From an uncultured Candidatus Actinomarina sp. (GTDB lineage: Bacteria; Actinomycetota; Acidimicrobiia; Actinomarinales; Actinomarinaceae): DNA of 55,403 nucleotides. This document shows, piece by piece, positions 39,067 through 54,427 of this stretch. Position 1 is the first letter of the stretch; each line of letters opens with the position of its first letter. The notes under the pieces were generated by a model. The model did no database searches, was not told where the DNA came from, and was given only the letters and a program-made list of their open reading frames with translations. The position numbers and the translations under genes are program-made. The stretch is from positions 1 to 55,403 of the forward strand of contig CACOKA010000002.1 in assembly GCA_902627635.1 (NCBI GenBank), given 5' to 3'.

Positions 39067-39090
39067 TTGATTAGAATCAAATCTAATCAA
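39067..39090. promoter_or_regulatory. 24-bp palindromic element abutting the giant-gene ATG (candidate operator or promoter)
   Basis: TTGATTAGA-ATCAAA-TCTAATCAA has perfect 9-bp inverted arms and ends 1 nt before ATG 39092. It matches 54501-54524 at 20 of 24 positions. An extra half-site GATTCTA at 39044-39050 is complementary to TAGAATC at 39072-39078. Confidence 0.5.
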
Positions 39091-39091
39091 A

Positions 39092-51988: not shown

Positions 51989-53568
51989 TGAAAAAACTAA
52001 TTATTTCATTAATCTTTTTCTTTTCTTTTTTTAACGGTGTATACCCCAATGGATATTTAGATACAAATTTACATGATACTGATGAAGCAACTATTGAAAT
52101 AGAATCTGCGAGATTAGATGAAAATAATTTACAAATTTCATGGTTAGTTAGTGGTCTTGAAAATATTGATGAATTGATTATTTCAGTTCGTGAACTTACA
52201 TCTGATGGATTGCAAGGAGAACCATTGGAGATTATCGATTACTCTGAAAAAGGACAAGAAATTATTCAATGGGATGGGACTACAGATCTTTCGATAACTT
52301 TAAAAATTTTATCAACAAACTACACACAATATAGTGGACCGGACTGCGCTTCGGTTTATTGTTATAGAGATATTACTACTGAAATTACTTCAGATGAGTA
52401 TATAATTAACAAAATTCCTGATCTTCCTGTAATAACTACTACTGTTCCCGTCGATGATTTTATTATTGAAGAAACAGCAATTGATACATCAACAAATATA
52501 ACATTCACAAATGAGCTTATTACAACTATTCCACTCTTCAGTGATATTGATTTTTCAGATCAGGCTAAAAATGCTTTTGCATTTCTTATAACTTCTGGAA
52601 TTATATTTCTATTTTATGGAGTTTTACTAGCCCAGGAGTGGTTCAACAGAATAATTGCACACTATAGAGTCAGGTGGTCAAATCGTGAAAGCAAATTAAG
52701 AAATAAAACAAGGCTTGAGATAGCAATGGAGATAACGCTTGTGGCTCTAATTACATCTCTCTTGTATGCATTTGTTGAGGAGGGCTTCACATTTCAAGTA
52801 CGGCAAGAGAATTTAGCAATTTTTGTTGGTGTATTATTTGGACTAATTATTGTTACCTTCTTTTATGAGGGTATAGAATCTCTAATTGAATATTTTCTGT
52901 ATGACCAAATTGTGAAATTTGATTGGAATCCACAAGCCATGTTTTTTGCAGTACTCTCAACAATACTCTTCATTGTTATTGATCTTCCTTTTGGATTTAT
53001 TCTTGGTTTTATAGCAGCAATACATGTAGTTTCGAAGAGACCAAAAGCGGAATTGTCACCTAAATTTTATTCAATGATAAGTCTTTCAATTGTTGGATAT
53101 TTCTTCTTCTACGCAACATCATTTGAATCGGTTAGCTCTTCAGGTGTTTTAATGGCAATTTGCAAACTTACTTACTTAATGTGTTTAGAGGGAGTTATAT
53201 TTAAAGCAGTTCCTTGGGGAGGGAATGAGTTATTTGATGCAATTGGTGACTCAGATGGAATTTATCAGGCAATGCCAATTGTTAGCTTTTTGATAAGTAT
53301 CTGGCTATTTATAAGAATTCTTGTCTTACCACCTGACAGTGAGTTTAATGAATTACAACAAACTTTATTACAGAGTGGAGAGCTAGCTTACAGATTCATG
53401 CTTGTTTTATTAATTTATATATTCATAATTTTACTACTAGGTAACTTCATGAAAAAATATGCTGAATTGAATAGGCCTGCTGACTATGAAGAAAGTTTAA
53501 AGATTGATGATGAAGAAATTATAGATTTAATTGATGATGACCTTAGCGAATCAGTAAATGAGTGGTAA
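51988..53568 (+). CDS. Polytopic membrane protein with a signal peptide and N-terminal ectodomain, unknown function
   Basis: I prefer the ATG at 51988 (MKKLIISLIFFFSFF, a signal-like start; TAATG overlap with the sortase stop) over the listed 51913. A ~200-aa ectodomain is followed by about 7-8 TMs and an acidic tail. Confidence 0.6.
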   Translation: MKKLIISLIFFFSFFNGVYPNGYLDTNLHDTDEATIEIESARLDENNLQISWLVSGLENIDELIISVRELTSDGLQGEPLEIIDYSEKGQEIIQWDGTTDLSITLKILSTNYTQYSGPDCASVYCYRDITTEITSDEYIINKIPDLPVITTTVPVDDFIIEETAIDTSTNITFTNELITTIPLFSDIDFSDQAKNAFAFLITSGIIFLFYGVLLAQEWFNRIIAHYRVRWSNRESKLRNKTRLEIAMEITLVALITSLLYAFVEEGFTFQVRQENLAIFVGVLFGLIIVTFFYEGIESLIEYFLYDQIVKFDWNPQAMFFAVLSTILFIVIDLPFGFILGFIAAIHVVSKRPKAELSPKFYSMISLSIVGYFFFYATSFESVSSSGVLMAICKLTYLMCLEGVIFKAVPWGGNELFDAIGDSDGIYQAMPIVSFLISIWLFIRILVLPPDSEFNELQQTLLQSGELAYRFMLVLLIYIFIILLLGNFMKKYAELNRPADYEESLKIDDEEIIDLIDDDLSESVNEW

Positions 53569-54427
53569 ATTAACCATTACTGTTATCATTTTAATTGTTT
53601 TATTCATTAGTGTGTCTTATATATATGTAATTAATAATCCAATTGAGATAAGTATTCAAGCTAATATTGGAAGTACTGAAACATCTACTACCTCATCTTC
53701 AACGACTACTACTACCTCATCTTCAACGACAACTACCATTCAACTTACTACTACCTCATCTTCGACGACAACTACTATACCAACTACAACTACCTCCTCA
53801 ACTACTACATCAACTACAACGACAATTCCACGGACGACAACAACAATTGAAGTACTAGAAAAAGAAGACTCAGTTGCCTTCAATTCGGATAATTCGGAAA
53901 ATATAAAAATTTACGAGGGTGAATTTATATCATTTGATGGATTTGAGGGTGAAAATCAATTCAACCTTGATACATTAGTTGCCAATTTACCTTTAGAGTT
54001 GAGAAAATCTGTAGAAAATAATGTCATATTTGTAAACGGTTGTCATTCTTACGGGGCTACAATTTTGGGCAGATGTCCTTTTGGTGTATGGGATTCAGCT
54101 GGAACATTTGCTGATGGCTCAACAAATTCAAATTGGAAATTATCAGTCTGGGTTTCAAACAAAGCATTCGCTAACAATAGAGCTTACAATACATTGCTTC
54201 ATGAAACATCTCACGCACTTTCATATTTAACAAGAAACTGTGTCAACTCAGAAGGTGAGAATCAAAGAAAAAATGCTCAAGAATTTTTTGGAAGTGAAGA
54301 ACTATTTGCTGACGCATTAGTCCTTTACTATGGGGGAGATTATCTTTATTACAGAGATGATCTTGTTTTGCAGGGATCTGAGAGAGAATATCTTGAGAAT
54401 TATGCATCCCTCTGCCTAAAGGATTAA
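53558..54427 (+). CDS. Membrane-anchored secreted protein with a Thr/Ser linker and a Cys-rich HExxH domain (paralog of 34716-35654)
   Basis: N-terminal TM, a ~60-aa T/S linker with TTTTIP repeats, and domain motifs NGCHSYG...CPFGVWD...LLHETSHALSY. Overlaps the upstream gene by 11 nt. Confidence 0.65.
   Translation: MSGKLTITVIILIVLFISVSYIYVINNPIEISIQANIGSTETSTTSSSTTTTTSSSTTTTIQLTTTSSSTTTTIPTTTTSSTTTSTTTTIPRTTTTIEVLEKEDSVAFNSDNSENIKIYEGEFISFDGFEGENQFNLDTLVANLPLELRKSVENNVIFVNGCHSYGATILGRCPFGVWDSAGTFADGSTNSNWKLSVWVSNKAFANNRAYNTLLHETSHALSYLTRNCVNSEGENQRKNAQEFFGSEELFADALVLYYGGDYLYYRDDLVLQGSEREYLENYASLCLKD
53685..53769 (+). repeat. Three copies of a 22-nt core inside the Thr/Ser linker coding region
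   Basis: ctactacctcatcttcaacgac occurs at 53685-53706 and 53709-53730, and with one mismatch (a to g) at 53748-53769. Confidence 0.8.

Follow-up and report, generated by a model that had tools for sequence, protein, structure and literature searches.

Known systems and the Actinomarina locus

Sortase-anchored fibrillar adhesins of Gram-positive bacteria are characterised by a signal peptide, a head, a stalk of tandem immunoglobulin (Ig)-like domains, covalent staples and a sorting signal, and are encoded by genes that far exceed in length all others of the genome; an adhesin of Mobiluncus mulieris, for example, comprises 7651 residues and 51 domains (PMC10619420). Wall-anchored adhesins can be released by a protease encoded in the adjoining gene, as in the pairs PPEP-1 (Zmp1, CD2830) and CD2831 of Clostridioides difficile and PPEP-2 and VMSP of Paenibacillus alvei, where the Pro-Pro endopeptidase (PPEP) cuts right outside the anchor, between the first two residues of PPxP; PPEPs have so far been reported only from Firmicutes (PMC8610288). 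Two further comparisons are sortases that serve one adjoining substrate with a non-canonical, co-varying motif (SrtB with IsdC; class GN with a single VWA-domain target) and the class E sortases (SrtE1/SrtE2 of Streptomyces, SrtF of Corynebacterium). Here we describe a gene cluster that shares features with each of these systems, located in a 55,403-nucleotide (nt) stretch of contig CACOKA010000002.1 from an uncultured Candidatus Actinomarina (Acidimicrobiia), hereafter the window, to which coordinates refer. It encodes a giant modular protein with a sorting signal, a sortase and two putative envelope proteins, here called M and H, next to a TetR-family regulator. The cluster is a variant of the known sortase-anchored fibrillar adhesin theme, and three of its features look novel: a natural substrate-sortase fusion in sister lineages, a two-transmembrane (TM) sortase bearing a RecA C-terminal domain (RecA_C), and the invariant partners M and H.

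Using N-terminal peptide patterns, a scan of one genome per species, which returned close relatives only (76–99% identical), found sortase loci in Candidatus Actinomarina or Acidimicrobiaceae single-cell genomes, and marine metagenomes contain 785 clusters of sortase homologues, all with the Pfam pair RecA_C and Sortase. Loci in which giant and sortase are separate genes (split type) were drawn from single-cell genomes, metagenome-assembled genomes (MAGs) and metagenomes; all those with enough flank have the order giant-sortase-M-H, followed by an SBF-family gene, rho, rpmE, DUF1385 and prfA. This order is kept in a lineage with a 62% identical sortase (contigs up to 1.02 Mb) and in a further lineage with a 62% identical M, and every related locus recovered shares the same chromosomal slot, with thrC upstream and rho, rpmE and prfA downstream. 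An earlier interpretation made from the letters of the window (the sequence-only reading) had proposed two accessory envelope proteins and a synteny comparison; M and H indeed follow the giant and sortase in every lineage, and the four genes are linked, or giant and sortase fused, in all related loci with enough flank. Because gene order recurs in every such locus, the four-gene arrangement is more than chance.

Actinomarinales genomes measure 1.1 Mb with a median intergenic spacer of 2 bp, and the main genome paper on the order makes no mention of sortase, LPXTG proteins or a giant protein (PMC7771536). Our literature search for Actinomarina together with sortase or a giant protein found nothing, and exact-sequence look-ups of the window sortase and TetR returned no match. 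Loci L013 and L015, from MAGs labelled Flavobacteriales and Methanobacteriota archaeon, carry sortases 80–83% identical to that of the window; the presence of the operon in these MAGs most likely results from contamination during binning. In line with mis-binning, NCBI names one H homologue as a Euryarchaeota protein.

Gene layout in the window

The cluster consists of five co-directional plus-strand genes with the following features.

38365–38982, plus strand: TetR-family regulator (PF00440 TetR_N), linked to the cluster in all split-type relatives
39069–39088, no strand: palindrome GATTAGAATCAAATCTAATC, conserved in the TetR-giant spacer, candidate operator
39092–50329, plus strand: giant putative sortase substrate (open reading frame, modules, Cys pattern, AlphaFold model, Foldseek), with predicted signal peptide, probable beta-propeller head (amino acids (aa) ~56–337), 29 Ig-like modules (aa 338–3635), acidic stalk and sorting signal
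50228–50326, plus strand: predicted cell-wall sorting signal (IPFTG, hydrophobic helix, RRAFKF), with SPPTPG ahead of it
50330–51988, plus strand: sortase with two TM helices and a predicted ~300-aa cytoplasmic loop (PF04203, E 1.5e-29)
50576–50740, plus strand: RecA C-terminal domain in the sortase loop, aa 83–137 (PF21096, E 1.2e-17)
50882–51229, plus strand: predicted cytoplasmic linker domain of the sortase, aa ~185–300, of no known family, delimited by homology with fused open reading frames
51988–53568, plus strand: M, with predicted signal peptide, ~150-aa ectodomain, Thr-rich linker and ~8 TM helices
53558–54427, plus strand: H, with N-terminal hydrophobic helix, Thr/Ser-rich stalk (53669–53848) and a zincin-like domain with four conserved Cys
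54200–54214 and 54296–54313, plus strand: H motifs HETSH and EELFAD
54449–54556, no strand: five-copy array of palindromic TAGAAyAGATTCTAAT between H and the SBF-family gene

The proteins comprise 3745 aa (giant; 409 kDa, pI 4.5), 552 aa (sortase), 526 aa (M) and 289 aa (H). Reading the letters bears out the tight packing described earlier: the giant's TAG (50327–50329) abuts the sortase ATG at 50330, the sortase stop and M start overlap as TAATG (51986–51990), and M and H overlap by 11 nt (53558–53568). The stop of the TetR gene lies, as stated then, 109 nt before the giant's ATG, and its product matches PF00440 (29.7 bits, cutoff 24). This geometry points to translational coupling and co-transcription of the four genes. 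A mechanical open reading frame for M opens at 51913; the signal-peptide-like sequence MKKLII... begins at 51988, the start that the sequence-only reading had assumed. Its start for the giant has to be corrected, as position 39067 is no start codon and is out of frame, the ATG being at 39092. This ATG is itself not conserved (AAG or TTG in some relatives, loci L027–L045), whereas ATG 39107 (giant Met6) and the preceding GTTGGGTAGT are kept in these relatives; thus the true start may be 39107.

We regard the probability that the giant open reading frame is an assembly artefact or a decaying pseudogene as negligible. The gene has no long DNA repeats, its frame is uninterrupted over 11.2 kb, and colinear orthologues of about 3.7 thousand aa occur in more than 10 independent assemblies, including single-cell genomes and a 1.02-Mb contig, which excludes the misassembly that the sequence-only reading had named as a refuting condition. 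Nothing in the data on the giant supports such an origin; the split M calls of L017, L019 and L021, discussed below, show that some assemblies carry frameshifts.

The giant protein

The giant is acidic and rich in Thr, Ser, Asn and Gly, and its N-terminus resembles a signal peptide with a long N-region. Invariant cysteines delimit 29 modules of 99–170 aa each, in agreement with the earlier count of about 29, and the modules are only ~15–30% identical to one another at the protein level, which removes any concern over collapsed repeats in the assembly. An AlphaFold (AF2) model of module 19, built from an alignment of the window's own modules, is a beta-sandwich with a predicted local distance difference test score (pLDDT) of 95 and a predicted template modelling score of 0.84, a confident prediction that confirms the Ig-like fold suggested before. 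Foldseek with this model recovered only generic E-set/Ig-like domains (TM-score <=0.6, E ~1e-3), namely ApaG, Ig-like domains of GH2 and GH3 enzymes, and CBM56. A module sequence profile found no solved relative in the PDB, and Pfam and NCBIfam gave no match on the window giant; faint Asp-box-type Pfam matches (Reelin subrepeat B, CHB_HEX_C) occur in the L049 giant only. Unlike the modules of known fibrillar adhesins, those of the giant go unrecognised in these sequence searches, and their sequence family appears to be new.

The head of about 280 aa has sub-threshold matches only, all of them to beta-propellers (Kelch_3, SGL, Vps41 propeller, DUF6923 and a designed Kelch propeller), so a beta-propeller is the probable fold. 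Pairing the first-strand Cys with the module-end Cys within each module accounts for all 62 cysteines of the giant, including Cys62–Cys337 of the head, while pairing across module junctions would strand two; we therefore infer one disulfide staple per module. Such staples would set the giant apart from known fibrillar adhesins, whose staples are isopeptide or ester bonds. At ~4 nm per module the stalk would measure roughly 100–130 nm. The Ig-like fold of the modules thus makes the fibre length of about 100 nm in the sequence-only reading a reasonable estimate.

The C-terminus has the parts of a cell-wall sorting signal, namely a TG pentapeptide, a hydrophobic helix and a basic tail (IPFTG at aa 3713–3717, RNVGGLIISFGLMLIGFGAFIL, RRAFKF). 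It is the sole such signal among all open reading frames of the window, as had been noticed previously. With tandem Ig-like modules in the stalk and a predicted anchor, the giant has the stalk-and-anchor layout of a fibrillar adhesin. In contrast to known fibrillar adhesins, it belongs to a planktonic, free-living oligotroph whose genome measures 1.1 Mb, its locus holds an apparently dedicated sortase and two conserved accessory genes, and its gene is a recombining mosaic. SPPTPG directly precedes IPFTG in the window giant, and the L018 clade has TPPKLPVTG.

The sortase and its RecA C-terminal domain

The C-terminal 130 aa of the second protein match the Pfam sortase domain (PF04203 at aa 425–545, 102.7 bits against a cutoff of 26.6, E 1.5e-29). 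The catalytic motifs AGH469RT, TLTTC529HP and the Arg in ARERL are conserved in the alignment, with His469 and Cys529 invariant or nearly so. Class E is the best NCBIfam class (NF033747, 114.9 bits, below the cutoff of 160), class GN scores lower still against its own model (TIGR03784, 67.5 bits, cutoff 158), and PDB relatives include SrtE1 (entry 5cuw). The motifs LAATG and MADTG of the fused type described below also fit the LAxTG preference of class E. The window enzyme differs from class E in its sub-cutoff score and its motif IPFTG, in appearing dedicated rather than housekeeping, and in an N-terminal extension with RecA_C that is unprecedented there. From SrtB and class GN it differs in being nearest class E, in its two-TM topology with a large loop predicted to be cytoplasmic, and in being fused with its substrate in sister lineages.

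The two TM helices lie at aa 4–22 (TM1) and 327–345 (TM2). Since both carry basic residues on their loop-facing side, the ~300 residues between them should be cytoplasmic. The sequence-only reading had called the sortase extended; the extension is real and also holds a RecA C-terminal domain (PF21096 at aa 83–137; 64.2 bits, cutoff 27; E 1.2e-17), which aligns residue by residue with the C-terminal domain of E. coli RecA in PDB chains. RecA_C is present in all split-type sortases and absent from fused-type ones. When only the extension was used as query, an exhaustive search across 1.8 billion representative proteins gave full-length matches restricted to this clade, all other matches covering just the RecA_C segment, and a literature search for RecA_C combined with sortase found nothing. 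A RecA_C-bearing two-TM sortase thus looks novel at the sequence level.

Fused giant-sortase genes in sister lineages

An M-based search brought in relatives at 41–44% identity (loci L049, L053–L061) with the order hom-thrC-[large open reading frame]-M-H-rho and no separate sortase gene. The large frame (1311–2369 aa in L049, L053–L057 and L058–L061) has a head and modules of the same kind as the window giant, and reads without a stop through LAATG or MADTG, a hydrophobic helix and RKRR/KSRKRK into a cytoplasmic domain, followed by a second TM helix and a sortase domain (Pfam E-values 1e-23 to 1e-29). At least nine assemblies, which come from different studies and include a single-cell genome, show the fusion; it is therefore not a sequencing artefact. 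A literature search on natural sortase-substrate fusions found nothing, and to our knowledge an enzyme-substrate fusion has not been described for any natural sortase.

The cytoplasmic domain after the basic tail of the fused type is homologous to aa ~185–300 of the window sortase, which implies that the TAG/ATG junction of the window corresponds to the point of fusion or fission. Where the fused enzyme uses the sorting-signal helix of the substrate, the split enzyme has its own first helix and RecA_C. That giant and sortase form one open reading frame in sister lineages argues for the dedicated sortase-substrate pair postulated by the sequence-only reading. The pentapeptide varies by lineage, being IPFTG in the window, LPVTG in the L018 clade, FGPTG, and LAATG or MADTG in the fused type, as expected when one enzyme serves one substrate.

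One could go further and suppose that sortase and substrate form a one-to-one unit acting in cis. The fused enzyme would cleave, at the sorting motif, the polypeptide of which it is part and pass the fibre on to the wall, the sorting-signal helix staying behind as its TM1; the split form would keep the stoichiometry by stop-start coupling. The RecA_C loop, which might bind DNA or some partner in the cytoplasm, would control or place the anchoring step from within the cell. We consider this proposal unlikely.

Between split and fused types Rho is ~86% identical, equal to its identity among split-type lineages, whereas M and the sortase domain are only ~41% identical; thus two deeply diverged versions of the cassette occupy one chromosomal slot. 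This divergence might indicate that the cluster arrived by horizontal transfer as a flexible island and is no core feature of the lineage, as might the repeat arrays at its downstream border and the GC content of the giant gene (37–41% in window 40001–50000, against 30–33% elsewhere in the window and ~31% on average). We find such an origin improbable, for the slot is the same in every lineage examined, the flanks lack integrase, tRNA and mobile-element genes, and within the split type the divergence of the accessory genes roughly keeps pace with that of the genome. The raised GC probably reflects the Thr/Ser/Gly/Asn-rich composition of the giant rather than foreign origin.

Accessory proteins M and H

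M is the most conserved of the four proteins, with the nearly invariant motifs FFYEG(I/L)ESLIEY, DLPFGFILGFIAAIH and VPWGGNELFDA, and its TM region is nearly invariant between clades with 62% identical sortases. It matches the NCBIfam model NF041501 (FGLLP motif-containing membrane protein) with E 5.5e-11 at 42 bits, below the cutoff of 150, and similar matches occur in all clades (E 1e-8 to 1e-11, 32–44 bits, profile positions ~17–178 of 312). M is at best a distant relative of this family, which has no known function. A literature search on 'FGLLP' found nothing relevant, and tblastn of the TM region against plasmids gave no match. In L017, L019 and L021, long contigs of the lineage with the 62% identical sortase, the M gene is called in two or three pieces (about 11662–13286), reflecting either assembly frameshift errors or real pseudogenisation; it is intact in L018 and L020.

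H has a domain of ~190 aa with four invariant Cys and invariant HETxH and EE(L/F)FAD motifs across clades at 46–85% identity. The HExxH motif noted in the sequence-only reading is present; 'secreted' is not established, as H may be signal-anchored or cleaved after IQA. Its Thr/Ser-rich stalk consists of imperfect tandem repeats with periods of 24 and 39, and homologues span 252–304 aa with widely varying stalk length. M and the stalks of fused-type giants have comparable Thr-rich linkers, and these segments could possibly be O-glycosylated and wall-spanning. Some H homologues (P0217, P0221, P0224, P0231, P0233) carry the precomputed Pfam accession PF27926.1, so a recent Pfam release may already define the H family under this accession.

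The sequence-only reading recognised neither accessory protein; M has its distant match to NF041501, and H has a plausible known relative. PPEP-1/Zmp1 of C. difficile is the only structured family recovered for H in three PDB searches (E 0.06–0.2; phmmer E 0.06, hidden Markov model E 0.13). Aligned by hhalign with PPEP-1, whose sequence was checked against PDB entry 2n6j, H gives a probability of 84–88% and 32–33% identity over about 90 columns, which cover the edge strand that binds substrate and the two helices carrying HExxH and Glu185. HETSH and EELFAD align with H142/E143/H146 and E185 of the PPEP-1 catalytic core, matching the pattern of Pro-Pro endopeptidases and M34 (ATLF-like) zincins, in which HExxH is followed by a Glu ligand in an EExFAE-type helix. 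As in PPEP systems, the gene of an HExxH...E protein lies beside that of a putatively anchored adhesin, and PPxP stands just ahead of the sorting motif in the window giant. H differs from PPEP-1 in its Thr-rich stalk, its four conserved Cys and the lack of a conserved Tyr178, with similarity below database significance. It is also co-oriented with the cluster and overlaps M, whereas PPEP-1 is inversely regulated via cyclic di-GMP riboswitches. An Rfam scan of the window found no riboswitch or other element near the operon, its only matches being tmRNA (21829–22169, 156 bits) and one tRNA (30457–30528).

The resemblance to PPEP-1 is suggestive only. The match became no better when more divergent H sequences were included, and no Pfam or NCBIfam peptidase model, including Pfam ATLF, matches H. 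A Foldseek search with the H model, which has a pLDDT of 46, was discarded as meaningless. Judged from sequence, H is probably an M34-like zincin acting on the fibre base, with Pro-Pro specificity unproven.

Probable regulation of the cluster

In 22 metagenome loci the gene immediately ahead of the giant encodes TetR, and these loci include relatives whose TetR is only 43–52% identical. The coupled operon beside a TetR gene described by the sequence-only reading thus holds for the linkage, while coupling and co-transcription are suggested by gene geometry. A TetR homologue is linked to the cluster in the single-cell genome of L049 as well, there between the fused giant-sortase gene and M (9365–9997) and not upstream; the fused-type loci L053–L061 have no TetR or SBF-family gene within the cluster.

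The TetR-giant spacer is strikingly conserved and ends in the palindrome GATTAGAAyCAAATCTAATC, which in the window reads GATTAGAATCAAATCTAATC and is kept across compared loci together with an upstream TTTACTTTACTTTTAATnGATTCTAGTTAAACT block. Its half-sites are GATTAGAAT-N2-ATCTAATC. In L001 the palindrome, there TTTGATTAGAATTGATTCTAATC, also stands ahead of a second giant paralogue. The exact pattern TTAGAA-N(2-8)-TTCTAA is not enriched across the window (one match, expected 0.29); the candidacy of the palindrome as operator therefore rests on its conservation across loci rather than on within-window statistics. TetR and the upstream palindrome probably control expression of the cluster.

The array at 54449–54556 consists of three perfect 15-nt tandem copies and two spaced copies, and the spacer holding it measures 186 nt, compared with the reported median of 2 bp. 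The same spacer carries the motif in L012, L007, L008, L014 and L006, with a single copy in the clade of L014 and L006; the L018 clade lacks it. In L001 the second giant gene occupies the position of the array.

Mosaic diversity of the giant gene

Loci with 100% identical sortase and 99–100% identical M have giants only 67–99% identical to each other, and in strains whose sortase and M are 99–100% identical, segments of the giant fall to 55–70% DNA identity. In sliding windows, L001 and L002 are 99% identical over ~42980–45600 and 65–69% identical over 41500–42680, L001 and L003 show the reverse block pattern, and L003 and L005 are 99% identical up to ~46500 and 57–71% thereafter. Between the window and L001 the sortase DNA is 79–85% identical and some giant segments are 90–96% identical, which implies exchange of giant segments across species boundaries. 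All giant alleles are colinear. These alignments show the giant gene to be a mosaic that recombines within a conserved operon; as for the hypervariable island considered by the sequence-only reading, only the giant gene is hypervariable and the accessory genes are conserved. Locus L001, from a single-cell genome, also encodes, directly after H, a second giant paralogue that shares the head and the module family (14169–19391, plus strand, running off the contig).

Such mosaicism is consistent with an exposed structure under frequency-dependent selection from phages or grazers. It raises the possibility that the fibre is not chiefly an adhesin and instead a sacrificial or shielding coat, a phage decoy or grazer spacer built by the same machinery, which H sheds when it is occupied. 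The extreme diversity of the giant within one species, beside neighbours that are 99–100% identical, the swapping of segments across species boundaries and the second paralogue of some strains would all suit a coat, and envelope diversification in these bacteria has been ascribed to phage pressure (PMC7771536). A head on a long stalk with a wall anchor is, however, the classic layout of a fibrillar adhesin, and adhesins that double as phage receptors show equal diversity, so that the data do not separate the two roles. We rate the coat as distinctly less probable than an even chance.

Proposed mechanism

We posit that the cluster builds a conserved Actinomarinales surface fibre with a dedicated sortase, the partners M and H, TetR control and a recombining giant, and assign this model as a whole a probability of roughly 75%. 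The giant would be exported via its N-terminal signal and form a fibre of ~100–130 nm, with a probable propeller head on 29 Ig-like modules. Its C-terminal signal ((I/L/M)xxTG, TM helix, basic tail) would retain it in the membrane until the adjoining sortase cuts after Thr and links it to peptidoglycan, as suggested by the established sortase mechanism and by the fusion. In fused lineages the sorting-signal helix of the substrate would serve as the first TM helix of the sortase, and the linker domain would join it to TM2 and the external catalytic domain. In the window lineage the gene appears split exactly there, the sortase having its own TM1 and RecA_C. M and H would be obligatory partners. 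H is most likely a zinc protease borne outside the cell on a stalk and related to Pro-Pro endopeptidases, with an even chance of trimming or releasing the fibre. M might serve as a platform in the membrane or as an enzyme that modifies the base of the fibre. The giant would diversify through recombination among deeply diverged alleles.

Several observations weigh against this model. The sortase scores below the class E cutoff and the window motif IPFTG differs from the LAxTG of that class, the RecA_C domain is left without explanation, M has no informative relative, and operon status and coupling are read from gene geometry alone. Further points concern H, whose link to PPEPs is not significant in database searches (E-values just 0.06–0.2) and whose predicted structure is of low confidence. 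In H a Phe stands opposite the catalytic Tyr178 of PPEP-1, next to a gap that makes the equivalence uncertain, and the Pro-Pro site ahead of the sorting motif is absent in fused-type giants.

The E-values, the Phe in place of Tyr178 and the missing Pro-Pro site, together with the lack of a matching peptidase model, would also suit a protein that does not release the fibre. It would then be a zinc enzyme for maturation or wall remodelling, or a zincin-like module with no catalytic activity, its likeness to PPEP-1 reflecting only a shared HExxH...E scaffold. The gene geometry further suggests that H is co-expressed with its presumed substrate, whereas PPEP-1 is regulated inversely to its own. 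Speaking for a releasing protease are the extent of the hhalign alignments, which take in the edge strand and both metal-ligand helices, the recovery of PPEP-1 variants as the only structured family in independent PDB searches, and the adjacency to the substrate gene, a hallmark of PPEPs (PMC8610288). We place the non-releasing alternative a little short of an even chance.

Significance for Actinomarina and for sortases

Candidatus Actinomarina is among the smallest and most streamlined of free-living cells, yet it retains a 15.3-kb cassette, ~1.4% of the genome, for one fibre that may measure a third of the cell diameter. For the sortase family, the natural fusion of substrate and enzyme is genetic evidence of dedicated pairing and offers a ready construct for the study of cis-cleavage; a cis-acting sortase-substrate unit, if true, would represent a new mode of sortase action and control. 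The RecA_C-bearing loop, predicted to be cytoplasmic, is an unexplained addition to a well-studied enzyme family. Should the assignment of H be confirmed, the release of anchored adhesins in the manner of Pro-Pro endopeptidases would reach beyond Firmicutes into Actinobacteria. In the otherwise very stable genome of an abundant ocean bacterium, the giant gene forms a recombination hot spot within and between species, and its product is therefore a candidate phage receptor, shield or attachment organelle.

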